Shown piece by piece: positions 3,662 to 54,200 of a stretch of DNA of 64,000 nt. The translations under genes and the position numbers were made by a program. Every line of letters begins with the position of its first letter. Position 1 is the first letter of the stretch. Below the pieces are notes generated by a model. The model searched no databases. It was not told the origin of the DNA and saw only the letters and a list, made by a program, of their open reading frames with translations. This DNA comes from Vulcanimicrobiota bacterium (GTDB lineage: Bacteria; Vulcanimicrobiota; Vulcanimicrobiia; Vulcanimicrobiales; Vulcanimicrobiaceae): assembly GCA_963777365.1 (NCBI GenBank), contig CAVZQG010000013.1, positions 9,600-73,599 on the forward strand. The letters run 5' to 3'.

Positions 3662-4217
3662 ATGAAAAGACTGTGGTTAGCCGCCGCAGCGGCGGCCTTA
3701 TTCCTACCCGGCGTCGCCGCCGCGGCCGGCAGTCCGGCCGGTGCCGCGACCAAGATCGTCGTTATCCACGCCGCGTCGATGCAGAGCACGCAAAGCCTGA
3801 GCGGCAGCTGCTTCGCAAGTTCGATCGCTTCCCGGCGTTCGGACGCCTATCGCTGCATGACGGGCAACAGCATTCACGATCCATGTTTTTCCGTTGACGC
3901 TAAAACGGTCGCCTGCCCGACGAATCCGGGCGCGGATTCCGGTGTACGTATCACCCTGACCAAGCCGCTTCCAACCGCCAATACCGGCAACGGACGTAGC
4001 GCCTGGATGATGCGTCTTGCCGGTGGAACGACCTGCAACATGGGAACCGGAACCGTCATTCCGGATTATCCGTTCTACTGCACCGGAAATCTGGTGTGCG
4101 CCGCACCCGCCGCAGGCGATGGGTACGCACGCGGTCTACGTGCAGTGCGGAAAGCCGAAGAACGCCATGAGCGTCATCGAAGCCGGACGCAAATTCGTCG
4201 CGATCATGTACGAATAG
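3662..4217 (+). CDS. Secreted Cys-rich hypothetical protein, one apparent frameshift (~4110-4125)
   Basis: Signal peptide MKRLWLAAAAAALFLPGVAAA and eight or more Cys. The C-terminal continuation lies in the frame of ORF 4017..4217 (...AVYVQCGKPKNAMSVIEAGRKFVAIMYE*). Confidence 0.45.
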
Positions 4218-8380: not shown

Positions 8381-8896
8381 CTACTTCGTCGCGGTCACCT
8401 GCGCGGGCGTCACGGCCGAGGCATGATTGCCCCAGGAAGCGCGCACGTACGTGATGACGGCGGCGATGTCCGGGTCGCTTAGCGTACCTTTCCATGCGGG
8501 CATCTGGCCGTTATACGTCGTGGACCCGACCATGATTTTGCCGCTCAGTCCGTCCTTAACGATATGGATGACCTTATCCGGCGGACCGGTGACGACCGCG
8601 TTGCCCGCAAGCGGTGGAAAGACGCCTGCTTGCCCCTTGCCGTTGGCTTGATGGCAGCTGGAGCAGTTGGTCGTGAAGACCTTCATGCCGTTTGCGCTGG
8701 CCATTGCCCCGCCGGCCATCGTGGCGCCCGACATCGCCGAGCTTTTGGCGGCGCTTGCAGCCGGCGATGCGCCCGGCGAGGAAGCCGTCGAGCTCGAGCT
8801 GCTTTTTCCGCCGGAACAGGCCGCCGCCGCAACGACGAGTATCGCGGCCGTGAGCAGGGCGGATACGGTTTTCTGCATGCCCCTTGTTCCTTTCAC
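8381..8896 (-). CDS. Monohaem c-type cytochrome, lipoprotein-type signal
   Basis: Lipobox-like signal LLTAAILVVAAAACSG, haem motif CSSCH, distal Met region GQMPAWKG, and a low-complexity Ser/Ala linker. Confidence 0.8.
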   Translation of the reverse strand: MKGTRGMQKTVSALLTAAILVVAAAACSGGKSSSSSTASSPGASPAASAAKSSAMSGATMAGGAMASANGMKVFTTNCSSCHQANGKGQAGVFPPLAGNAVVTGPPDKVIHIVKDGLSGKIMVGSTTYNGQMPAWKGTLSDPDIAAVITYVRASWGNHASAVTPAQVTATK

Positions 8897-8965
8897 AAAA
8901 ATGCCTATGCGTTGGGTTAATACTTCCTCCGCCTGTACGCGCCTCTAATGGAAGCGGGCGCCGGT

Positions 8966-34774: not shown

Positions 34775-36003
34775 TTACGGGGAAGCTGTAAAATCCGGGA
34801 CCTTCAGGGTACCCGCTCCGGCTGCCGACCGCAGCGCGTCGACCTTGTCCAAGCGCTCCCAGGGCAGGTCGAGATCCGGACGGCCGAAATGCCCGTACGC
34901 AGCCGTCTGCCGGTAGATCGGACGGCGAAGATCCAAATTATGGATGATCGCAGCCGGCCGCAGATCGAACGTCTTTTTGACGATCTCCGCTATCTGCTCT
35001 TCGGAAAGCCGTCCGGTTCCGAACGTTTCGACCAGGACGCTTACTGGGCGCGCAACGCCGATCGCATACGCGACTTGTACTTCGCAGCGGTCGGCCAGTC
35101 CGGCCGCAACGATGTTCTTTGCAACGTGTCGCGCAGCGTATGCAGCCGAGCGGTCTACCTTCGTTGGATCCTTTCCGGAGAACGCGCCGCCACCGTGACG
35201 CGCCATGCCGCCGTACGTATCCGCGATGATCTTGCGGCCGGTCAGTCCCGCATCCCCTTGGGTCCGCCGATCACAAAGCGTCCGGTCGGATTTACGTAGA
35301 TCCGCGTATTGGCATCACGCAGCGATGCTGGAATGACGTGATTGATCACCTTCTCGGTGATCTCCGTGCGGATCGTTTCGAGCGGAATATCGGGATCGTG
35401 CTGCGTCGAGATAACGACCGCGTCGACGCGCACGGGCTTGTCGCCTTCGTACTCAACGGTGACCTGGGACTTTCCGTCCGGACGCAGGTATGGGATATCG
35501 CCGTTCTTACGCAACGCCGAGAGCGTACGGGTGAGATTGTGCGCAAGCACGATCGGCAGCGGCATCAGCTCGTCGGTTTCGCGGCAGGCGTACCCGAACA
35601 TCATGCCCTGATCGCCCGCACCGATGCGCTCAAATAGATCGTCGGGGTGTTCGCCGGCTTTTGCCTCGAGCGACTTATCGACTCCCATTGCAATGTCGGG
35701 CGACTGCTCGTCGATGGAAACGCTCACACCGCACGTGTCATAGTCAAAACCAACGGCCGACTTCGTGTAGCCGATATCTTTGATGACCTCACGCACAATA
35801 CGCGGGATATCGATGTAGGTCGTCGTCGTGATCTCACCGGCAATGTGGATCTGACCGGTTATCGCAAACGTTTCGCATGCGACGCGCCCGTTTGGGTCGT
35901 CTTGGAGAATCGCGTCGAGAACGGCATCCGAAATCTGGTCGGCGACCTTGTCGGGATGACCCTCGGTCACCGATTCGCTGGTAAAGAGCCGGCGGTATGC
36001 CAT
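34775..36003 (-). CDS. metK: S-adenosylmethionine synthetase, 1 frameshift (~35245)
   Basis: [32 protein letters not shown] and ...[12 protein letters not shown], then a break, then [11 protein letters not shown]...[19 protein letters not shown]. The junction is consistent with CCCC read as CCC. Confidence 0.9.
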
Positions 36004-40850: not shown

Positions 40851-41875
40851 ATGCGCATTTCCCGGCTTTCTTCAGGCATAGCCATTACCATCGCACTCTC
40901 CATCTTGACGGCTTGCGGAGGAGGCGGAGGCGGCTCGACCCCAAACGTCCCGAATCCGACAAACCCGCCGGGTGGTGCCACCAGGACCGACTGCGACGCC
41001 GGCTCCGGTACAGACGAGTTCGTCTTCACCGGCGACCCCAAAGCCGACACCGACGCCGATAGCCACGCTCGCGCCGACGCCGACTCCGAGACCGACCCTT
41101 GCGCCGACACCCACGCCCACACCCATGCCGACGGCAACACCCACGCCGAGCGGCGGGGGCAACAGCAGTAAGTCGGTGGGCGTCGGAAACGGTCAGATCA
41201 ACGGTCAGAACCCGGCCTTTACGGGCGGCATTGGAACGGTTACCGGAACGGGCGACTATCCGGCCGGAGGCCACGGCCCGCTGGACTCGACCTTCGGCGC
41301 CGCGTCGATACCTTGTCTGGAAACCATGTACGGCGGGGCCCCGACCGGCCCGGGTATACACGTCCACGCGTTTCTCGGGATCATGTTCAACGGCAAACAG
41401 ATGGCGCTCCCAGCCGGGATTGGAATCGCCAATCCGGCCGCTCCCGGGAACCTTCGCCGGAATCAACAATTGGATTGACTTCGCAGTCGGCCCGGGCTGC
41501 TTCTATCAGATGCATGTGCACGATTTCAGCGGGCTGATCCACATTGAAGGTTTCACCGCGCCCCCCGGCGGCTTCAGGGGCACGCTATACACACTCGGAG
41601 ATTTTCTGGGGCTCTGGGGCGTTCCGGTCGATCAATTAAACGGCGTCGTCGGTCCGTTCATGGGTAATAGGCCGCTCACGATCTACACGTCGGGTCCGGT
41701 CGCGCGAGGCGGCCCCGGTACAGGCGGTTTCCTGGGTTCAAGCACCTACACGCTGTTCACGGGCGACATGAATTCGATCCCGCTCTACTCGCACGAGGCG
41801 ATCTGGATTCTCATCGGTACCGGAAACCCAACCGGCAACAAACTTCCGAACGTCGATTTCTTCACGGAGTACTAG
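40851..41875 (+). CDS. Lipoprotein with Pro/Thr-rich linker and a C-terminal HxH...HxHD domain of unknown function, 2 frameshifts (~40975, ~41450)
   Basis: Lipobox ALSILTACGGGGGG. A PT-rich linker lies in the frame of ORF 40972..41478. Domain: GGHGPLDS...IPC...GIHVHAFLGIMFNGKQMALPAGIG...CFYQMHVHDFSGLIHIEG...YTLGDFLGLWG. It is a paralogue of 49817..50578. Confidence 0.55.
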
Positions 41876-41904: not shown

Positions 41905-41935
41905 TGAGGGGCGGGCATCCGCCCCTCATTTCTTG
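41905..41935 (+). terminator. Rho-independent terminator
   Basis: TGAGGGGCGG-gcat-CCGCCCCTCA 10-bp stem followed by TTTCTTG. Confidence 0.6.
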
Positions 41936-42487
41936 AAAAACCCCACTGTGAAACGGCCGCTTCCGCTCTGGCTTGCCGCCGTCGTTCCGTCCACGCTGGC
42001 GGGACACGGCTTCGCCTATGCGCTTGCCGGCCAAAGCGCCGCCGATGGACGACATGCGTGGCTGCTTCCCATGCTCGAATGTTCACTCGCACTGCTGATC
42101 GCCGTTTCGCTGATCCGGACGCACGAATCGCTCTTGAAGGCGCGCGTGCTCATGCATACGCCCGCGGAACGATCGGTTGCCGCGCTTTGGTGTCGACTCG
42201 CCTTCTCGCAAATCGCACTGTTCAGCGTCATCGAACAGCTCGAAGGTTCGCATATCAGCCTGACCGGAATCCTGGTTCAACTTTGCCTGGCTGCCGTTAT
42301 CGCCTGCGTTCTCGCGGCTTTTGCGCGGTTGATGATCGAATGCGCGCGCGGCACGCGCTTGGCCGGCATATACTTGCTGCGTTTGCGGCAAGGCGTCAAT
42401 TCGTTCGCTTCACGGCGCCCGGCGCCAATCGCGTATGCACTGGCCGTCCGCGCCGGAACCTCACGTTTCCAGCGCCCGCCTCCATAA
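41933..42487 (+). CDS. Four-TM membrane protein of unknown function (paralogue of 45732..46298)
   Basis: TM segments LWLAAVVPSTLAGHGFAYAL, WLLPMLECSLALLIAVSLI, LWCRLAFSQIALFSVIEQL and ILVQLCLAAVIACVLAAF, with conserved His residues. The start could also be the GTG at 41948. Confidence 0.5.
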   Translation: MKNPTVKRPLPLWLAAVVPSTLAGHGFAYALAGQSAADGRHAWLLPMLECSLALLIAVSLIRTHESLLKARVLMHTPAERSVAALWCRLAFSQIALFSVIEQLEGSHISLTGILVQLCLAAVIACVLAAFARLMIECARGTRLAGIYLLRLRQGVNSFASRRPAPIAYALAVRAGTSRFQRPPP

Positions 42488-42541
42488 GGACGACGCCTCG
42501 ATCCATTCTTCGACCGCGCTTTCCCGAATCGGAGGTTCCCC

Positions 42542-44306
42542 TTGCGTTTTCTCGTTGCAAGCGTTCGCGCATTGTGCGCGGCCGCGTTCGTGATACTAGC
42601 GATGCCGGCAGCAGGCTTTGGCTATCCCCGTCTTTGCCAACGGTCAGGGCATCTCGTGCGAGGTCTGCCACACGACCTTCCCCGGCATGACGCGATACGG
42701 CATGTCGGTGATGATGACGAATTTTCAGATCCTCAACCGGCATCTTCAGGACGGCGCTCTTCCCATCGCCGCGCGCATATACATTACCTCGCTCTTTGCC
42801 AACAAGGATCATCCCGGCTCGACGCAGGTCGATGATCTCTCGCTGCTGGGCGGCGGTTTTCTCGGAAAGAATTTCACCTGGTACGCCGAGCAGCACTTCA
42901 TCGATAGTGGCGTAATCGGCGATACGGAGCAGCTGTGGCTCTCGTGGAACGGTTTGCTGCACGGGACCAACTCGCTTCAAGTCGGGAAGTTCCATACGCC
43001 CTTCCCGTTCATGCCTGCGCACGCTTGGACTATCAGCGATTATCTGCTCGCCGATCAAACCACCGGCCAGAATGACTTCAACGAGGAAGATGCGCGCTGG
43101 GGCGTTGCCTTCAACGGCATGTCGAACGAGTTCATGTACAATTTTTCGTGGGTTACCGGGAGCGGGCCCACCGGCGATGCGCTCGACTACAATCCGACGA
43201 TAAATCCGCAAGCGCTCGATTTAAACGTCTCCTATGGCGGGATGATGATTCCGTGGTCGGTCGGAGTGGTCGGAATGCTCGGACATTCGCCCGTGCACGA
43301 CACGCAAACGAACGACTTCCTTTTTACCAACGCCTTCTCTCGCGAAGGCCTGTATTTGGCCTATCAGGACCCGGCCTGGCATTTTCAGACGATGTACTTT
43401 CACGGGTTCGACAATCAGCCGGACGTCGGCGAATTCAACGTGCCGCTGAACGGATTCTTTTTCGAAGTCGAACGCGATCTCGGATGGCGCAACCACATCG
43501 CCGTGCGGTACGACGTCGCTTCGAGCGATACGCTGAACCGGCAAGTCATCATCGATCTCTCGCACAATGTGTTGCCGAACCTTGCCCTCATCGGCGAGGC
43601 CGCGGGATATCCGCTGGCCCGCCCGGCATTCGCATTTCGCATTCAATATGCCGGACCTTATGAAACCGGGAACCGCTACTTGTCCAACTTACACGTTGTC
43701 TCGGCGAATAATCTCGGTGCGGTTGAACCCGCGAAGACCGTTGCCGTGGCGAACGTGGCTGCCTCGCCATCGCCGCAACCTGCCGCCGGTGATGCCAACG
43801 CGGGCGCCAAACTCGTTCAGGCCAACGGCTGCGCCGGCTGTCACGGTGCGAATCTCAAGGGCGGCGGCGTCGGGCCGGCGCTCTACGGCATCGAACACAA
43901 GCTCGCAAGCGCACAGATCGCCGATTTCATCAAAAATCCGCGGGCACCGATGCCGAACTTCGGTTTCAGCGATGCGCAAATCAGCGACATCATCGCCTAT
44001 CTGAGCGGTCTTGACGGCGGTGCGAATAGCCAGGCTCCGGTCGTAACGTTCGATCCGGCGACGCCGACCGACATCGCGACGATCACCGTGCGCTTCCCCG
44101 GAACTCCGCCCAAGGACGTGAGCGTTCTTCCGATCATGCAAATGGGCAAGAGCACCATGCAGACGCGTCTCGTACACCTCACGCCGTCTTCGAGCGACCC
44201 GAACACATTCACGGGAAAGGTCGTTTTCTCGATGGGCGGTCCCTGGACGGTCAAGGTTCAGTACGATGGAAACACCCTCGACGTGCCGCTGAACGTAGGG
44301 CAGTAG
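42542..44306 (+). CDS. Fusion protein: signal peptide + N-terminal CxxCH haem motif + about 350-aa beta-barrel-like region + class I cytochrome c domain + YtkA/FixH-like Ig-type domain (Cyc2-like fused cytochrome-porin architecture); 1 frame break in the signal peptide (~42615)
   Basis: SD GGAGG lies 6 nt before the TTG at 42542. Signal MRFLVASVRALCAAAFVILAMPAAG. CEVCH is at 42657-42671. The middle part is aromatic-rich with an alternating pattern and ends in an OMP-like last strand, RPAFAFRIQYAGPY. After the linker SPSPQPAAGD come CAGCH at 43830-43844 with a downstream PRAPMPNFG, and then ...MGGPWTVKVQYDGNTLDVPLNV. The barrel assignment is inferred, not computed. Confidence 0.6.
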
Positions 44307-45735
44307 TGCGCCGATCGCGATTCCTGCACAGCGGCTTTGGCGCGATGATTGCCGCGGCGTTGCCGCCGATGCCGGCATTCGCGCTTGGAAACGACGTGCT
44401 GGACTATACGCTGACGGCCACGCCTCTGCGTTTCTCACCGGTCGCCGGCGTTGAACTGGCGGGACTCGCATTCAACGGCACGATACCGGGCCCGGTGCTG
44501 CGCGTGCGTCACGGTCAACGTTTGCGCGCGAAGTTCGTGAATCAAAGCGGGGAACCGGCGACGATCCATTGGCACGGCATGATTCTGCCCAACAACATGG
44601 ACGGCGTCGAAGGCGTTACGCAAAAGGCGGTCCCGAGCGGGCGGGTCGTTCTTGTACGAGTACACGCCGGATCCGCCGGGCACGCGCTGGTATCACGATC
44701 ACATTAGCGACGGCTTTGCGCGGGGACTCTTCGGTCTGATCATCGTGGAAGATCCCAAAGACGAACCCGCGGATGCGGAGTTCGCGTTGGTGTTTCACGA
44801 CGTCCCCAAACTTGCGAGCATTCAGAGCTGCCATGGACGGCACGAGTCCCGCCCCAATGGTCGATCCGATCGGCTCACCTGAAATGACGGAGATGAAGCC
44901 GGACGACAAGATGGGCGACGAAGTTTCGTATCTCGCCCATTGCATCAACGGGCGTTCGTATCCCGATACGCAAAAGCTCGCGGTGAAGGTCGGCCAGCGC
45001 GTGCGGCTGCGCATTCTCAATGCCAATCCCACGCAGACGCGATACGTACGCCTAGCGGGACATCGACTAACCGTCACGCACAGCGATGGGAATCCATTAC
45101 CTCGCCCAATTGAGGTGGACGCACTGCGAATCGGCGTCGGCGAGCGGTACGACGCGTGGTTCGAGGTAAGCAAACCCGGCTCGTGGCTGCTGCAAGGCCT
45201 CGCGAGCGATCCGCTCGCTTATCAGCAGGCAGCGGTCGTCTTTACACCCGGACTGGAAGCCGCCTCGCCGATGAGCAGTCCGCAAACGCTCGACGGCGTT
45301 GATTTCTTTACGTATCAAAAAGCAGGCGCTGCCGGCAATGCGGCTATGTCACAAACGCGGCCTACGCGCTCATTTGATTTTAAGATTGCCGGTGGAGAAT
45401 GGGGCAGCAACAAATGGACGCTCAACGGCAAAACCTATCCCAATACGCAGAAACTTTACGTCGATCGAAACGATCTCGTTGAGGTGCACTTCAAGAACAC
45501 CACGGATATGGACCACCCGATGCACCTTCATGGCCACGTTCTGCAGCTCACCGAAGTAGACGGCGAGGGCTTGGCGGCTCCGCTTCTCAAGGACACGACC
45601 CTGGTCCGCGCCTACACCGGAACGGTCACCTGGCGTTTTCGCGCCGACTCGCCTGCCGGACGTTGGCTGTTGCACTGCCACAACGAGATACATATGATGG
45701 ACGGGATGATGACCGAGGTCGTATACCGCTCGTGA
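44306..45735 (+). CDS. Multicopper oxidase with twin-arginine signal, 2 frameshifts (~44640, ~44825)
   Basis: Tat motif MRRSRFLHSG. Copper ligand motifs HWHG, WYHDH, HPMHLHGH and HCHNEIHMMDGMM. The GTG start overlaps the upstream TAG by 1 nt. Confidence 0.85.
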
Positions 45736-46298
45736 ACCTAAAGGCGCGCGCCTTTGTTGCCGCAACGCTATTGGGATTGCCCGTAGCGCTGCTGGCGCAC
45801 GCGCTGGTTTTCGGCGGTCAACATGCGGCCGGCGGGGCGTCTCAACAGTTTAGTCGTCGGTTCGGCCTCGTTCGCGCTACTGCTGATCATCGCGCTGCAT
45901 TCACAGGAACTCGTTCAGGGCAGCGTACTGGCGGCGCGCTTGCGCGCGCAGCGGCCGGGCTTCGCGTCTCTGACGGTCTCCGGCAGCGTCTTGGTTCGCG
46001 ATCATCGAACTCAGCGAACGCAGCCACGCCATTCACATTGCTTGCGGTCGCAGCGGCGATCGTAATCGCATGCGTCGTAGTCCGCGCTGCCGTCAGCGCG
46101 ATCGCGCGTTCAATTGCCGCGGTCGCGGTCGTCCTCTCAGCGGTCGGCCGGCATATTGCCGCGCTCGTGCGAACTCGCGTTTTCCTGCGGCACGGTGCGC
46201 CGCTTCGCTGTCTGCTCGTTCGCGCATACACGGCGGCTGTTCTCACGCCCGCCGCCCGTCCTTTCCTAAACATTTCTCGAAACTTCTCGTTCGTTTAG
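45732..46298 (+). CDS. Membrane protein, paralogue of 41933..42487, at least 2 frame breaks
   Basis: The GTG overlaps the MCO stop (GTGA). VAATLLGLPVALLAHALVFGGQHAAGG... and ...AIIELSERSH... parallel AGHGFAYAL and SVIEQLEGSH of the upstream paralogue. A hydrophobic C-terminal part lies in another frame. Confidence 0.4.
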   Translation: MNLKARAFVAATLLGLPVALLAHALVFGGQHAAGGASQQFSRRFGLVRATADHRAAFTGTRSGQRTGGALARAAAGLRVSDGLRQRLGSRSSNSANAATPFTLLAVAAAIVIACVVVRAAVSAIARSIAAVAVVLSAVGRHIAALVRTRVFLRHGAPLRCLLVRAYTAAVLTPAARPFLNISRNFSFV

Positions 46299-46308
46299 GA
46301 AAGGTTCC

Positions 46309-48723
46309 ATGTCTAAAATTGTTGCGGCATTGCTTGCCGCTTTCATACTGTTTTGCGGCGTTGCCCGCAGCCGCCGCCACCGACGGACTCGTGCGCGGCA
46401 CCATTCTGGTAAACAATAAACCTGAGGCGGGCGTGAACGTCGCGCTGACCGGCGAGGGATCGCTGCTCACGACCAAAACCGACGCGCCGGCAATTACGTC
46501 TTCTCCACAAGTCCCGTTCGGCGACTACATGCTCTCCGCGTCGTATCCGCCGGCGTACCCGAAAAGAAGCTGCCGGTTACCGTCGCATCCGATCAGGTCC
46601 TGACCGTGAACTTCGCGCTCGGCGAGACTGAAAACGATTGCGAATCTCAGCTCGTACTGCGCACGGCGGCGCATCGGGCACACCCGTTCGCCGTCAACGT
46701 GCTGGGGCGGCAGCAAATCTCCGCGCTTGCCGGTGAACAACAGCCTGAATCAGCTCGTCACGACCGTACCGGGTATCGTGCGTTTCTCGTACAACGAGCC
46801 GGTCGCCCATGGTTTCCACGGCGTCACGTACGAAATCGACGGCGCGCCGATGCCGCTGGCAACCAGTTCGAACTTCGCCGAGATCATGGATCCGAAGAAC
46901 ATCGATTCGCTCGAAATCTTCACCGGCGCCATGCCGGCAGAGTACGGCGGCAGCCGGCAAGGCGCCGTCATCAATATCCAGTCGAGCCGTGCGTAGCGAT
47001 CTCACCGTTCCCTATCAAGGGTACGTCAGTTTGGGTGCGGGAAATTACGGCCAAGCAGTGGCGAGCTTCAACAACGAAGTCAAGACCGGCAAGACCGAAG
47101 TATTCTTCACCGCCAATACGCAGCACGGCGATCGCGGCCTCGACGCTCCGACCTACACGCAAATGCACGACAGCGCCTCGCGAGTCGGATCGAATTTCTG
47201 CGCACGATAACGAATTTCAGCAATCGCGAATCGCTCGCGTTTGACTTCTCCAATCAACTCGCGCAGTTCCAGATTCCGATCAACACCAACCCGAACGACG
47301 CGGCGGACCCAACCTTCGCCGTACCCGGTACCGACGACGTCCAGCGCGAGTACGATCGCCTCGCGAGTTTGAATTTCACGCTGACTTCGAAGGACGGGAA
47401 CGGCGTTTTCCAGATCATTCCCTGGGTTCGCTCGACGCGCATTGCGTACGACGGCGATTTGGAAAAGGACGTGCTTGGCTTGACCAATCTGGGCCCCGAC
47501 TCGAACGACCCGAGCCTGTTCGACTATCAGTCAGCCATCGGATTGAAGCAGGATCGAAAGGCCGATTACACCGGCATTCGGCTCTCGCAATTTCGCGCGA
47601 CCAAGCATCACGCGTTCAAGGTCGGCCTCGACGCAAGCCGCGAGATCTTCACCGGTGCCGAGACGTTCGCGTGCTACGATCCGTCATGCAACACCGTTGT
47701 CAACAGCTTCCCCTTCCGCCGCCCACGAACCTCACGTTTGTCGGCTCGAACCAGGATCAGGCCGGACGCAGATAGGTGCGTACGTTGAGGACAAATGGAC
47801 GCCGACGCAGCAGTTGTCGTTCAACTACGGTTTGCGGTACGATCATTCCACGGGTTACACCAGCGGCAATCAGATAAGTCCTCGAATCGGCGTCAACTAC
47901 GCGGCCGGACGACAAGAACGTGCGTTCACGTGTATTATGGACGGTTTTATGCCGCGCCGCAGCTCGAGGATGTTCGCGCGGACTGCGTCGTGCTTCAGGG
48001 TTGCCCGAGCACGCCGGTCTACGATCTGAAACCCGAAACCGATTCGTATTTTGAGATGGGCTTGGCGCACACGTTCTCGCCGACGCTTCGCGGCTACGTG
48101 AATGCGTGGCAGCGCAACGCCAGCAACGTTCTGGACACGACGCAACTGCTGAATACGCCGCTCTTTGCCGTCTTCAATAACTCGATCGGGCGCGCCGACG
48201 GCGTAGAATTGCGTCTGGAAGGGAACGTGACGCCGCGCGACTCCTGGTTCCTTTCGGGTTCGGTGGGTGTGTCGCAAGCCGCGGGCATCTCCGGTTCGAC
48301 GTTCCTATTCCCGCCCGGCTCGTCGGGCGGTACGACCAATGAACTCATCTCGCAACTCCAGCCGGAAGATCACGATCAAACTGTTGCAGCTCAACGCGCG
48401 CGTTCACGCACCGCTGGGGCACGAACCAGGCCTTTTACACGCAGCCTGCAAGGCGATGTACGGAACCGGCTATCCGGTCGCGTTCGAGGGCTTCGTCAAT
48501 GGGGCACCGGTCGCGTTCGAGCGGCCGTTTACCGACGCATTTGCTCGCGAATTGGTCGATCGGGAGAAACGCGGGGCGCAACGGCGATCGTTCGCTGGGC
48601 TTCGATCTGAATGTCCAGAACCTGCTCAACCATCAGTACATCATCAAGATCGCCAACGGGTTCAACACGACGCAAATCGCATCCGGCCGAAACATTCTGC
48701 TTCGTGTGACCGCTCCGTTCTAG
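46309..48723 (+). pseudogene. TonB-dependent-receptor-like outer-membrane protein with carboxypeptidase-regulatory-like N-domain; frame broken about 8 or more times
   Basis: Signal MSKIVAALLAAFILFCGVA. GLVRGTILVNNKPEAGVNVALTGEGSLLTTKTDA.... Plug region ...VPGIVRFSYNEPVAHGFHGVTYEIDGAPM...IDSLEIFTGAMPAEYGGSRQGAVINIQS. Barrel pieces lie in many frames, with a terminal ...GRNILLRVTAPF*. Confidence 0.65.
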
Positions 48724-48789: not shown

Positions 48790-49809
48790 ATGCATGATTT
48801 AACTCGTGGTCACGTCGTCGTTACCGGCGGCGCCGGCCTCATCGGCAGCGCTCTGGTCTGGGCGCTCAACCTGCGCGGCATCGACGATATCTACGTCGTC
48901 GACCGGCTCGATACGAGCGAGAAATGGAAGAACCTGGTCGCGCTTCGCTACCGCGACTACATCGACGCGGACGAATTCGAGCGGCGACTGCTGGAACGTC
49001 CATCGTTGTTTGCCGGGATACACACCGTGCTGCATATGGGCGCATGCTCCTCGACCACCGAGACGGATGCAGCCTACTTGATGCGAAACAACTACGAGTA
49101 CACCAAGCACGTTGCACACTGGGCCGCGGAGCAGGGCATTCGTTTCGTCTATGCCTCCTCGGCTGCGACCTACGGCGCGCTCGAACACGATCTGCGCGAC
49201 GATTCGGATATCGATGCGCTGCGTCCGCTCAACATGTACGCCTACTCCAAACAGCGGTTCGACGTATACGCGCGAGACCTGGGCCTGTTGGATCGCATAA
49301 CCGGCTTGAAGTATTTTAACGTTTTCGGACCCAACGAACACCACAAGGGCGAGATGCGCAGTTTGGTCGACAAGGCGTTCTACCAAATTCGCGAGAGCGG
49401 CAGTATCCGGCTGTTCAAGAGCCACCGCGCCGACTATCGCGACGGCGAACAGCAGCGCGATTTTCTCTACGTCAAGGATGCGGCCGCGATCACGCTTCAC
49501 CTCGCCGAGCATCAAGCAACGGGCATTTATAACGTCGGATCGGGGGTCGCCCACACCTGGCTGGATCTCGTGCGTCCGATCTTTCGCGCGATGGACGTTC
49601 CCGAGCGGATAGAGTTCATCGACATGCCGCTCACGCTGCGCGATAAATATCAGTATCACACCTGCGCGAACATCGAACGGCTGCGTGCGAGCGGATACGA
49701 TCGTCCGGTTACGCCGCTTCCCGAAGCGGTCGACGACTATGTTCGCAGCTACCTCATTCCCGGCCGGCGGCTCGATCCGCAGGCCGCAGCGCCCGCAGGA
49801 GTCAAGTGA
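48790..49809 (+). CDS. hldD: ADP-L-glycero-D-manno-heptose 6-epimerase
   Basis: VVVTGGAGLIGSALVWALN..., HMGACSSTTE, FVYASSAATYG, YAYSK and YFNVFGPNEHHKG are colinear with enterobacterial HldD/RfaD. Intact. Confidence 0.8.
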   Translation: MHDLTRGHVVVTGGAGLIGSALVWALNLRGIDDIYVVDRLDTSEKWKNLVALRYRDYIDADEFERRLLERPSLFAGIHTVLHMGACSSTTETDAAYLMRNNYEYTKHVAHWAAEQGIRFVYASSAATYGALEHDLRDDSDIDALRPLNMYAYSKQRFDVYARDLGLLDRITGLKYFNVFGPNEHHKGEMRSLVDKAFYQIRESGSIRLFKSHRADYRDGEQQRDFLYVKDAAAITLHLAEHQATGIYNVGSGVAHTWLDLVRPIFRAMDVPERIEFIDMPLTLRDKYQYHTCANIERLRASGYDRPVTPLPEAVDDYVRSYLIPGRRLDPQAAAPAGVK

Positions 49810-49816
49810 TCGCCCG

Positions 49817-50578
49817 ATGAGCCAATCTCGCGCCGACCGCCGTCGAACCAGTCGCGGAGGGGCGATGCCACCGCGCAAACGCGATCCCATGGTGCCGATC
49901 TACATCGCGTTTGCGGTACTCATCGCGCTGATTTTTCTCGGCTTCGGCATCGCGAATATGGTCACCAAACACTCACGTGACCAGGCCTCGGCTTTCGATT
50001 TGAGTACACCGACGCCGGGCCCGGCTCCGACATCGAAACCGATTCAAGTCAAGGATTTGCAGCCGATCGGAAAACCGACCGGTTTTCCGGTTGCCAATCT
50101 CCAAAAAGGCATTTTACCCGATACCAAAACGGGCGGACACGGCGATGCGGTTGACGGCATTCCCTGCCAAAGCATGGAAGTCGGCATCCTGCATATTCAT
50201 TCGCATCTGGCGCTTTTCAACGATGGCGTGCCCGTACAAATACCGGCGTTTATCGGCATGTCGCCGAGCCTTGGCGGCGGATGCTTATATTGGCTGCATA
50301 CGCACGGGCCCGACGGCATCATCCACGTCGAAGCCGGCGACGTCAGCGCACCGAGCGGCGGTCCGTTTACGCTGGGGATGTTCTTCGACATCTGGGGACA
50401 GCCGCTCAAACGCGACCAAATCGGTCCGTTCAAAGGTGACGTTACCGCATATGTCAACGGCGTACCGTACACCGGCGACTTGGCCGCCATTCCGCTTCGC
50501 GCTCACCAGATTATTACGCTCGAAGTAGGCAAGCCGATCGTTGCGCCGCCAAATTATAAACTACCGCCCAACGACTAG
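49817..50578 (+). CDS. Membrane-anchored secreted protein with HxH...HTHG domain (paralogue of 40851..41875)
   Basis: N-terminal TM helix VPIYIAFAVLIALIFLGFGIA. Domain: GGHGDAVDGIPC...GILHIHSHLALFNDGVPVQIPAFIG...CLYWLHTHGPDGIIHVEA...FTLGMFFDIWG. Intact. Confidence 0.6.
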   Translation: MSQSRADRRRTSRGGAMPPRKRDPMVPIYIAFAVLIALIFLGFGIANMVTKHSRDQASAFDLSTPTPGPAPTSKPIQVKDLQPIGKPTGFPVANLQKGILPDTKTGGHGDAVDGIPCQSMEVGILHIHSHLALFNDGVPVQIPAFIGMSPSLGGGCLYWLHTHGPDGIIHVEAGDVSAPSGGPFTLGMFFDIWGQPLKRDQIGPFKGDVTAYVNGVPYTGDLAAIPLRAHQIITLEVGKPIVAPPNYKLPPND

Positions 50579-53640: not shown

Positions 53641-54200
53641 ATGGGTCGATTTCTCCCCCTCGCTGCGATGGTATGCCTGGTTCTTGGCGCGTGCGCGCCG
53701 CCCGCGCCCCTGCACGGCACGGTGCTCTCGCCGCCGAAAGCCGCGCGCCGCTTCTCGCTCGTCGATCAAAACGGCACGCGATACGTGCTTGCGCAAGAGC
53801 AGAATCGATTTACAGCGCTGTATTTCGGCTTTACGCACTGCAAAGATATTTGTCCGCAAACGCTTGCAATGCTCGGCAAGGCACGCGCCCGAGCCGGGTT
53901 AACGCCCGCACAGCTTCAGATCGTTATGGTAAGCGTCGATCCGGCGCGCGATACGGCCGGCCGCGATGCGCGCGTTCTTCGCGAAGGTCGGGGTGCAAGC
54001 GGTCGGGCTACACGCGCCCGCGGCGCAGATGGTGCCGGTCTACCGCGCCTACGGTGTTGCCGTGCGAGACCAAGCTTCACGATATCGGCCACACCGACGT
54101 TATCTACATCCTCGACAAACAAGGACGCACGCGTGAAATACTCTCGCCGCAAACGCCGGTTGACGCCGTTGCGCAAGACCTGCGGGCGCTAGTAGAGTAA
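53641..54200 (+). CDS. SCO1/SenC copper chaperone, 2 frameshifts (~53960, ~54070)
   Basis: Lipoprotein-like MGRFLPLAAMVCLVLGAC. FGFTHCKDICP (CxxxCP), ...VSVDPARDT, then other frames ...VPVYRAYGV... and HDIGHTDVIYILDKQGR. Confidence 0.75.

Follow-up and report, generated by a model that had tools for sequence, protein, structure and literature searches.

A gene in the window, by which we mean the whole 64,000-nucleotide stretch of Vulcanimicrobiota bacterium DNA analysed here (GenBank assembly GCA_963777365.1, contig CAVZQG010000013.1), encodes a Cyc2-like haem-porin that carries a class I cytochrome c domain and a YtkA-like domain behind its predicted barrel, and this fusion gene directly adjoins a gene for a multicopper oxidase with a twin-arginine (Tat) export signal. 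We see an even chance that the fusion protein is a two-haem outer-membrane conduit for electron uptake, tethered to a cytochrome c and a copper domain and feeding the oxidase. The individual parts (Cyc2-like porin, class I cytochrome c, YtkA-like domain and multicopper oxidase) are all known; what is new, relative to the literature we found, is that they are combined in a single polypeptide, that this is almost always paired with the oxidase, and that fused, split and barrel-less forms occur as a series in two little-known phyla of soil bacteria.

Architecture of the fusion protein

The main open reading frame (ORF) encodes 562 amino acids from a TTG codon to a TAG stop at 44304–44306 (Table 1 lists the coordinates of all features), and its four cysteines all lie inside two CxxCH motifs. 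An earlier reading of the window from its letters only (the sequence-only reading) had described four parts in one polypeptide behind a signal peptide, and all four do occur in a single open frame, 42618–44306, though the signal peptide lies in another. The N-terminal haem segment, AIPVFANGQGISCEVCHTTFPGM (residues 2–24; Cyc2-type motif AIPVFANGQGISCEVCH), contains the haem 1 site CEVCH (residues 14–18, 42657–42671), which the sequence-only reading had recognised as an N-terminal CxxCH and which is kept in every full-length homologue examined. Across 113 full-length homologues there is no variation in either CxxCH motif or in AxPVFANGQG, a degree of conservation far beyond chance.

The haem segment is followed by approximately 300 residues rich in Gly, Asn, Asp and aromatics that end in a last strand, RPAFAFRIQYAGPY, at residues 335–348. 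No Pfam or NCBIfam model matches the first 390 residues of the fusion. An AlphaFold2 model based on an alignment of 105 homologues has 16 predicted beta strands over residues 50–346 (pLDDT mostly 80–95 in this block), with low confidence for residues 1–45, for the linker and for parts of the cytochrome domain (modelled here without its haem), and when the barrel was compared with the PDB using Foldseek it matched 16-strand general porins only (OmpU, Omp36, OmpF, OmpC, PorB and OprP; E = 3e-11 to 5e-8, TM-scores of 0.55–0.69 normalised to the target). The putative porin of the sequence-only reading is borne out by these results, as a soluble fold was not predicted for residues 40–390. Behind the barrel, the expected Pro/Ser linker was found as a segment rich in Ala, Pro, Ser and Val (residues 349–389) that is modelled with a pLDDT below 50 for residues 365–389.

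Residues 392–465 match two Pfam cytochrome models above their cutoffs, PF13442 (E = 2.2e-12, 47.6 bits against a cutoff of 27) and PF00034 (E = 1.9e-10, 42.3 bits against 21.3), in agreement with the class I cytochrome c domain proposed earlier. The haem 2 site CAGCH is found at residues 405–409 (43830–43844) and the probable distal ligand, M445, within PRAPMPNFG at residues 441–449 (43938–43964), so that an above-cutoff profile match, a CXXCH motif and a distal Met are all present; C405, C408, H409 and P-M445-P are invariant in the family.

The last 97 residues (466–562) form a predicted beta-sandwich, which AlphaFold2 modelled on its own as a seven-stranded Ig-like fold with a pLDDT of 90.5. 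The Pfam YtkA model PF13115 matches the whole window protein below its cutoff (E = 0.0034) and the domain alone with 22.3 bits against a cutoff of 25.9, but it also matches 37 of 41 family members at E ≤ 1 (best E = 5.2e-6) compared with 10 of 41 for FixH. The Ig fold that the sequence-only reading had suggested for this domain of about 100 residues agrees with the predicted sandwich, and its resemblance to YtkA/FixH with these weaker profile matches. Foldseek returned generic Ig and filamin folds plus the Helicobacter copper-resistance protein CrdA (TM-scores of 0.60–0.68, E = 0.012), and as these folds are generic we make no specific assignment beyond a resemblance to YtkA and CrdA. When a profile of the domain was compared with the PDB sequences nothing significant was found, with CrdA the sole named copper protein (E = 0.26); in that alignment the IMQMG loop of the family is set against the Met-rich loop of CrdA, and FSMGGPW against LSMNGTW. 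Three methionines, M507, M509 and M539, are invariant in the family and in the Dormibacterota orthologue described below, and as they align with the CrdA Met cluster, the domain probably binds copper. Met clusters of a similar kind bind Cu(I) in CopC, PcoC and CrdA (PMC9182242), and the YtkA domains of CtaK and the YcnJ C-terminus act with Sco in delivering copper to cytochrome oxidase in Bacillus subtilis (PMC13344008). The window domain thus resembles YtkA/CrdA-type domains in being a small Ig-like beta-sandwich predicted to lie outside the cytoplasm, with a Met-rich loop and an SMxGxW motif as in CrdA, but differs in its position behind a cytochrome c and a porin, in scoring near or below the Pfam cutoff, and in that its copper binding is putative.

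The two C-terminal domains are inferred to be periplasmic because of the even-stranded porin topology, the Sec signal on the split version of the protein and the Tat signal on the oxidase. This arrangement, in which a barrel with an internal last-strand signal precedes a tethered and predicted periplasmic domain, is similar to that of OmpA, although OmpA has eight strands, a peptidoglycan-binding domain and no redox cofactors. An outer membrane is itself plausible in the host phylum, given the TonB-dependent receptor three genes downstream and the outer membrane with lipopolysaccharide (LPS) of the sole cultured member of the phylum (PMC9758169).

Relationship to Cyc2

We compared the N-terminal module with Cyc2 following the membership criteria of Keffer et al. 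2021 (PMC8406198). A profile of the module run against 1.84 billion cluster representatives identified 173 proteins at E ≤ 0.001, the majority having 370–450 aa, a signal peptide followed by xxPxFAxxxxxxCxxCH, and an aromatic C-terminal residue. The exact published consensus, AxPxFAR[Q/K][T/Y]xxxCxxCHxxxPxL, occurs in 20 of these 173 representatives (383–455 aa), to which the module profile aligns with E-values of 1e-15 to 1e-4 in hmmsearch; hhalign aligned the window family with the same 20 proteins at 99.96% (E = 8.9e-39) over 323 columns that take in the haem segment and nearly the whole barrel. By these profile comparisons, the N-terminal module is a homologue of the fused cytochrome-porins, i.e. 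it is Cyc2-like. It should be noted that none of the remote relatives is labelled Cyc2 in its source, where names such as ‘hypothetical’, ‘mono/diheme cytochrome c’ and ‘cytochrome c oxidase subunit 2’ are found instead.

The family shares several features with Cyc2 (compared here with Acidithiobacillus ferrooxidans Cyc2 and Mariprofundus ferrooxydans Cyc2PV-1; PMC8406198). These are a signal peptide (in frame in the homologues and one base out of frame in the window), a CxxCH no more than about 15 residues from the mature N-terminus, AxPxFA (here AIPVFA) at an identical spacing from the haem site, a proline four residues after the CxxCH, and a predicted 16-strand porin fused to the haem segment in a protein of at least 365 aa (562 aa in this case). 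The porin resembles OprP and OmpF, and OprP/OprO is the structural match reported for Cyc2 (PMC8406198). In contrast, NGQ replaces the R[Q/K][T/Y] of the AXPXFAR[Q/K][T/Y] motif in all 113 full-length homologues, the PXL motif that follows the Cyc2 haem site is PGM (with P22 and M24 invariant), and Cyc2 has a single CXXCH near the mature N-terminus whereas a second, CAGCH, is present here in an added domain. The window family further differs in its 215-residue extension behind the barrel (linker, cytochrome c and YtkA-like domain, predicted to be periplasmic), in having a multicopper oxidase as genomic partner and not Cyc1, rusticyanin or a haem-copper oxidase, and in being found in Eremiobacterota and Dormibacterota. 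As the strict signature fails, an iron-oxidase function cannot simply be transferred to the family, and we therefore refer to the module as Cyc2-like rather than Cyc2.

Fused, split and barrel-less forms

A search of 5.8 billion proteins found at least 120 clusters with 59–80% identity to the window protein, nearly all of them 565–614 aa long, and those clusters carrying a source name were all from Eremiobacterota (Baltobacteraceae, Vulcanimicrobiaceae, Rubrimentiphilum and Tyrphobacter). Bin-level surveys have reported ‘Cyc2-like’ genes in this phylum without describing their architecture (PMC8357290, PMC13594681). When we scanned species-representative genomes with the cytochrome c–YtkA part, 54 family loci were recovered together with seven unrelated cytochromes; 41 of the 54 are fused, three have a single in-frame stop between the barrel and the cytochrome, and seven are barrel-less (no barrel within 4 kb upstream), with the rest made up of two frameshifted long-read bins (L045 and L064) and one locus starting at a contig end that could not be classified. 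An assembly-induced fusion, which the sequence-only reading had raised against itself, is ruled out because the architecture recurs in over 110 protein clusters, drawn from four sources of data (NCBI, JGI, ENA and Logan), and in 41 of the 54 genomes surveyed at species level.

The sequence-only reading had also suggested looking for the C-terminal domains as a separate gene, and such a gene was found in Dormibacterota between a barrel-only haem-porin and an orthologous oxidase. In this locus (L009), a haem-porin of 401 aa is followed by a 202-aa cytochrome c–YtkA protein with its own signal peptide (54% identity to the last 190 residues of the window fusion) and then by the oxidase, which is 62% identical to the Eremiobacterota oxidase, while the small membrane protein encoded upstream is 37% identical. 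The barrel gene and the cytochrome c–YtkA gene are separated by a single in-frame stop codon (L009:8204–8212), and because the end of the signal peptide of the 202-aa protein can be aligned to the Ala/Val-rich linker in the fusion, we suggest, with low confidence, that the fusion arose by the loss of a stop codon.

The seven barrel-less species (L016, L018, L020, L028, L037, L042 and L061) keep the cytochrome c–YtkA protein and the oxidase. In two of these the family signal peptide and a short remnant, PVFA in L018 and HATFPGMTPY in L016 (both at approximately 3800–4000), are joined directly to the linker, and they look like in-frame deletions of some 345 codons, by which the porin was lost together with the first haem site. 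As both the split and barrel-less loci retain the two, the cytochrome c–YtkA protein and the oxidase are an inseparable pair, with the haem-porin the usual third partner that can be lost.

Paralogous haem-porins with other extensions were also found. Four have one C-terminal cytochrome c (P0139, P0149, P0151 and P0204), two have two (P0124 and P0134), and P0138 ends in a cupredoxin with a CuA-type C-x3-C-x3-H-x2-M motif; this cupredoxin form comes from a Baltobacteraceae bin (L004:6635–8954), where it is encoded between two small cupredoxin genes and beside COX1/COX2. Judging by the sequences of these paralogues, the clade has repeatedly placed a soluble electron carrier behind a Cyc2-like barrel, on its putative periplasmic side. 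The sequence-only reading had held known Cyc2 proteins to be haem and barrel only, and was aware of no versions extended by a second haem domain and an Ig-like domain. Extended relatives do exist in databases, although our literature search found no paper on Cyc2-type porins with a C-terminal cytochrome, cupredoxin or YtkA extension, or with a multicopper oxidase partner.

A candidate electron conduit to a multicopper oxidase

The oxidase gene has a GTG start that overlaps the stop codon of the fusion gene by 1 nt in the window (TAGTG), and it adjoins the cytochrome c–YtkA coding region in 49 of the 50 species-level loci with enough downstream sequence, with a gap of -14 to +25 nt. Cu-oxidase_3, Cu-oxidase and Cu-oxidase_2 Pfam matches are found both in the window fragments and in the intact orthologues, giving the expected three domains, along with the copper-ligand motifs HWHG, HPMHLHGH and HCHNEIHMMDGM and matches to laccases and multicopper oxidases in the PDB. 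The orthologues have a Met-rich loop, AMMGTSTAPM.DP.GSPEL..M.P.DKMGDE, between cupredoxin domains 1 and 2 (L001:10140–10240 and the L009 equivalent; approximately 44790–44900 in the window) which is possibly a Cu(I)-binding segment.

In the conduit we propose, a Cyc2-type haem segment would sit at the mouth of, or inside, the 16-strand porin, and a flexible tether would leave the barrel on the periplasmic side, bearing the class I cytochrome c and the Met-rich YtkA-like domain, with translational coupling of the fusion gene to that of the Tat-exported three-domain multicopper oxidase. The donor to haem 1 would be a reduced species, located in the pore or outside the cell and most likely Fe(II) by analogy with Cyc2, though Cu(I) and Mn(II) are also possible. 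Haem 1 would pass the electron to the tethered cytochrome c; from there it would go to the type 1 copper of the oxidase, where O2 would be reduced to water in the periplasm. The YtkA-like domain may bind Cu(I) through its three invariant methionines, and could either load the Tat-exported oxidase with copper or act as a dock or mediator on it. The flow of electrons to the oxidase is suggested by gene linkage only, and its direction and the substrate are inferred. The sequence-only reading had proposed that, should the barrel be real, both C-terminal domains would be placed to exchange electrons with the co-translated oxidase; the three conditions it set for its own refutation were all checked, and as none of them refuted it we regard that interpretation as supported. 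The linkage to the oxidase survives both gene fission and barrel loss, and as the seven barrel-less species keep the cytochrome c–YtkA protein and the oxidase, the oxidase is the constant partner of the cytochrome.

A number of points weigh against this reading. A periplasmic O2-reducing oxidase conserves little or no energy, and its physiological purpose could be detoxification, iron acquisition or oxygen scavenging; moreover, a multicopper oxidase can oxidise Fe(II) or Cu(I) directly, which would make the cytochrome unnecessary. The haem 1 segment is poorly modelled by AlphaFold2 (pLDDT of about 40), the strict Cyc2 signature fails (NGQ for R[Q/K][T/Y], and PGM for PXL), and the fusion copy in the window is itself frameshifted in the signal peptide. 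The CopA subfamily as the best named match of the oxidase, its conserved Met-rich loop and the frequent proximity of SCO1 favour copper handling over iron. Even within Cyc2, the functions of cluster 3 are considered uncertain (PMC8406198).

Copper handling provides the main alternative, which is possible but, in our view, less likely. The locus would then be a copper-homeostasis system analogous to Pco/Cop, with the porin as a PcoB-like channel, the YtkA-like domain as a PcoC/CrdA-like Cu(I) carrier, the oxidase as a PcoA/CueO-like enzyme and the small membrane protein as a PcoD-like partner, and the haems would adjust the copper redox state (by oxidising Cu(I), or by reducing Cu(II) for capture) rather than harvest electrons from iron. 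The best NCBIfam match of the oxidase is indeed copper_res_A (TIGR01480; CopA subfamily; E = 1e-54), but its 186 bits fall short of the subfamily cutoff of 479, and neither CopB/PcoB nor CopC was matched among Pfam models at E ≤ 1, leaving the locus outside Pco/Cop as defined by these families. The alignment of the three YtkA-like methionines with the CrdA Met cluster and the role of YtkA domains in copper trafficking (PMC13344008) also favour a copper system, although the similarity to CrdA is not significant alone (E = 0.26 by profile and 0.012 by Foldseek). Several genomes have two SCO1/SenC genes within a few genes of the module, yet in L008 neither SCO1 nor the TonB receptor adjoins the module. 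Further support comes from the persistence of the cytochrome c–YtkA protein and oxidase without the porin in seven species, and from the dominance of Baltobacteraceae in some Cu/Ni mine-tailings samples (PMC13594681). Set against this, the barrel is clearly a Cyc2 homologue, and the known Pco/Cop systems are haem-free whereas both haem sites are invariant here.

A direct comparison with PcoAB(C)/CopAB(C) brings out the same mixture. In both there is an outer-membrane barrel gene beside a gene for a Tat-exported multicopper oxidase and a Met-rich Ig-like module (with copper binding predicted in the present case), but the barrel here lies outside the PcoB/CopB family and has 16 strands compared with the 10–12 predicted for PcoB, haem sites and a cytochrome c are present, the copper module is YtkA-like and not CopC, and the gene order is reversed. 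We note that the PcoAB/CopAB-type pair of porin and multicopper oxidase has also been proposed to be Fe(II)-oxidising (He et al. 2017, PMC5566968), and that an electron conduit and a copper-centred role are not fully exclusive.

The tethered cytochrome c might alternatively serve a general respiratory chain (a haem-copper oxidase or bc1), with the adjoining multicopper oxidase unrelated or sharing its copper supply, which we regard as improbable. Canonical Cyc2 pathways do end in cbb3- or aa3-type oxidases, a paralogous haem-porin–cupredoxin fusion is found beside COX1/COX2, and two cytochrome-extended relatives (L005 and L010) have no adjoining multicopper oxidase. However, in the family itself the oxidase gene abuts or overlaps in 49 of 50 loci across two phyla, the pairing of cytochrome and oxidase survives gene fission and barrel loss, and there are no haem-copper oxidase genes in the conserved neighbourhood of the genomes examined.

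If the electron conduit is correct, it can be placed beside two known systems. The Acidithiobacillus rus operon (Cyc2–Cyc1–rusticyanin–aa3 oxidase) similarly encodes a haem-porin, soluble carriers and a copper-containing O2 reductase together, and is mirrored closely by the paralogous porin–cupredoxin fusion beside COX1/COX2 in L004; in contrast, our family has its first periplasmic carrier joined covalently to the porin, and the terminal enzyme would be a soluble multicopper oxidase that is not proton-pumping. The MofA–MofC and OmpB clusters (PMC5566968), which we compared by description only, likewise pair a multicopper oxidase with a c-type cytochrome and copper-chaperone functions (a SCO1 gene in Geobacter), but their oxidases are large and extracellular or at the outer surface, and the cytochrome partner is not fused to a porin.

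Reading frame of the window copy

The signal peptide claimed for the N-terminus by the sequence-only reading, MRFLVASVRALCAAAFVILAMPAAG, is encoded from a TTG codon at 42542 and preceded by GGAGG at 42531–42535, but it is out of frame with the haem segment by one base, which that reading had overlooked. The stretch 42542–44306 is 1765 nt long and no multiple of three, and stop codons occur in the haem frame just upstream of 42600. In the homologues, the signal peptide is in the same frame as the haem motif and ends with AxA before IPVFANGQG; dropping one T of the TTT at 42617–42619, for example, would restore the equivalent sequence in the window (...MPAAGLA|IPVFANGQG). The public annotation of the identical database protein (P0001, 539 aa) begins at an internal Met, and thereby misses the first haem site.

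Other frames are broken in the window in metK (35255–35260), the oxidase (44635–44831), SCO1 (53955–54081), the TonB receptor (approximately 48400–48460) and a neighbouring gene of unknown family (approximately 41450). Because these genes are also frameshifted, the 1-nt indel near 42600–42620 is probably an assembly error rather than biology, and as single-base indels are frequent in the assembly of this window, its ORF-based annotation is unreliable. A programmed frameshift at the signal peptide was ruled out, as the homologues are in frame and unrelated genes in the window are broken too. That the fusion gene is a dead pseudogene in the present genome, with the frameshift preventing export, is consistent with the different frames of the signal peptide and mature protein and with the broken oxidase gene downstream, but we consider this very improbable: the essential metK and several unrelated genes show the same type of frame change, similar breaks are found in long-read metagenome bins of the same phylum (L045 and L064), and the other 562 codons are intact, with 73–80% identity to intact homologues and every invariant residue kept.

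Gene neighbourhood

Gene-by-gene examination of six genomes showed a constant unit of a small membrane protein, the fusion and the Tat-signal multicopper oxidase, often with overlapping stop and start codons. A second small membrane protein is encoded in some genomes only, and in the window the two paralogues flank the fusion–oxidase pair, share the motif E..EG.H, located in a hydrophobic helix, and end in RF(Q/K)RPPP; neither has a Pfam or NCBIfam match. Frequent neighbours include the TonB receptor, an epimerase, a second secreted protein of unknown family and two SCO1 genes, with one or more of these missing from L007 and L008. The TonB receptor and SCO1 were therefore rejected as obligate parts of the module, as these two genomes lack one or both.

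Table 1. Location of the fusion gene, its domains and the adjoining genes in the window.
Feature	Position	Strand	Evidence
Small membrane protein, 184 aa, about four hydrophobic helices, ends RFQRPPP; first gene of the module	41933–42487	+	Orthologues directly upstream of the fusion in L002, L006, L007, L008 and L009
GGAGG ribosome-binding site and signal-peptide coding region, in a different frame from the remainder of the gene	42531–42616	+	Three-frame translation; homologues have an equivalent in-frame signal peptide
Approximate site of 1-nt indel (one extra base) between signal-peptide and mature-protein frames	42600–42620	+	Three-frame translation; length of 1765 nt
Main ORF, essentially the mature four-part protein	42618–44306	+	ORF translation; 100% identical to database protein P0001
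Cyc2-type N-terminal haem segment, AIPVFANGQGISCEVCHTTFPGM	42621–42689	+	Invariant in family; same spacing as canonical AxPxFAR[QK][TY]xxxCxxCHxxxPxL
Predicted 16-strand outer-membrane beta-barrel, residues ~50–348, last strand RPAFAFRIQYAGPY	42765–43661	+	AlphaFold2; Foldseek porin matches; hhalign to canonical-motif Cyc2-like proteins
Flexible A/P/S/V-rich linker, residues 349–389, length variable among homologues	43662–43784	+	Low pLDDT; gappy alignment columns; aligns with signal-peptide end of separate Dormibacterota protein
Class I cytochrome c domain, haem 2 CAGCH, probable Met ligand in PRAPMPNFG	43785–44012	+	PF13442 and PF00034 above cutoff; invariant ligands
YtkA-like Ig-type beta-sandwich with M507 (44136–44138), M509 (44142–44144) and M539 (44232–44234)	44013–44303	+	AlphaFold2; PF13115; weak CrdA resemblance
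Three-domain multicopper oxidase, twin-arginine signal MRRSRFL, read in three frames (indels)	44306–45735	+	Pfam; intact orthologues of 460–480 aa
Second small membrane protein, paralogue of 41933–42487, frameshifted here	45741–46298	+	tblastn with L001 175-aa protein; alignment; uncalled copy in L002
TonB-dependent receptor (CarboxypepD_reg, Plug and barrel)	46316–48720	+	Frequent neighbour; not adjoining the module in L007 and L008

The gap from the end of the upstream gene (41875) to the first gene of the module (start at 41933) contains a GC-rich hairpin with a perfect 10-bp stem (TGAGGGGCGG atgc CCGCCCCTCA, 41905–41928), possibly a terminator showing where the transcription unit of the module begins; apart from this strong hairpin, a scan for promoters and terminators found sites no more numerous than in shuffled sequence. 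Two paralogous secreted or anchored proteins (about 30% identical) are encoded on the forward strand just upstream of the module (41099–41875) and beside the SCO1 genes (49685–50578). They share C...HxHxHL...GGC.YW(I/L)HTHD.SGIIH.E and are possibly metal-binding; no model in Pfam or NCBIfam matched either of them. Elsewhere in the window, a reverse-strand open frame (8384–8944) includes a class I cytochrome c haem site, ...FTTNCSSCHQANGKGQ, and is unrelated to the fusion.

Significance

Cyc2 is the most widely used genetic marker of microbial iron oxidation, but its periplasmic acceptor has been established in few organisms and the meaning of divergent homologues is uncertain. We tentatively propose, with rather less than even confidence, that Eremiobacterota and Dormibacterota share an undescribed trans-envelope redox module consisting of the small membrane protein, the Cyc2-like haem-porin, cytochrome c–YtkA and the multicopper oxidase, in which this soluble oxidase, in place of a haem-copper oxidase, would reduce O2 with the electrons that enter at the outer membrane, and that the fusion is a Rosetta stone naming the direct periplasmic partner of a Cyc2-type porin as a class I cytochrome c (or a cupredoxin in the paralogues). 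If true, this would answer, for the present clade, the question of who receives the electrons from Cyc2. The fusions of haem-porins to cytochrome c or cupredoxin are genetic evidence as to which step of the chain comes next, and the almost constant association with a multicopper oxidase suggests that the electron sink differs from that of the textbook pathway. The strict motif screen behind the Cyc2 reference tree (PMC8406198) would discard this family, and marker surveys may consequently mis-score both phyla. The natural fused, split and barrel-less versions also provide ready-made experimental constructs. Acidic soils, peat and mine wastes harbour these organisms in abundance, and in one study they dominated copper/nickel tailings (PMC13594681), so the module may matter for iron and copper cycling in these environments.

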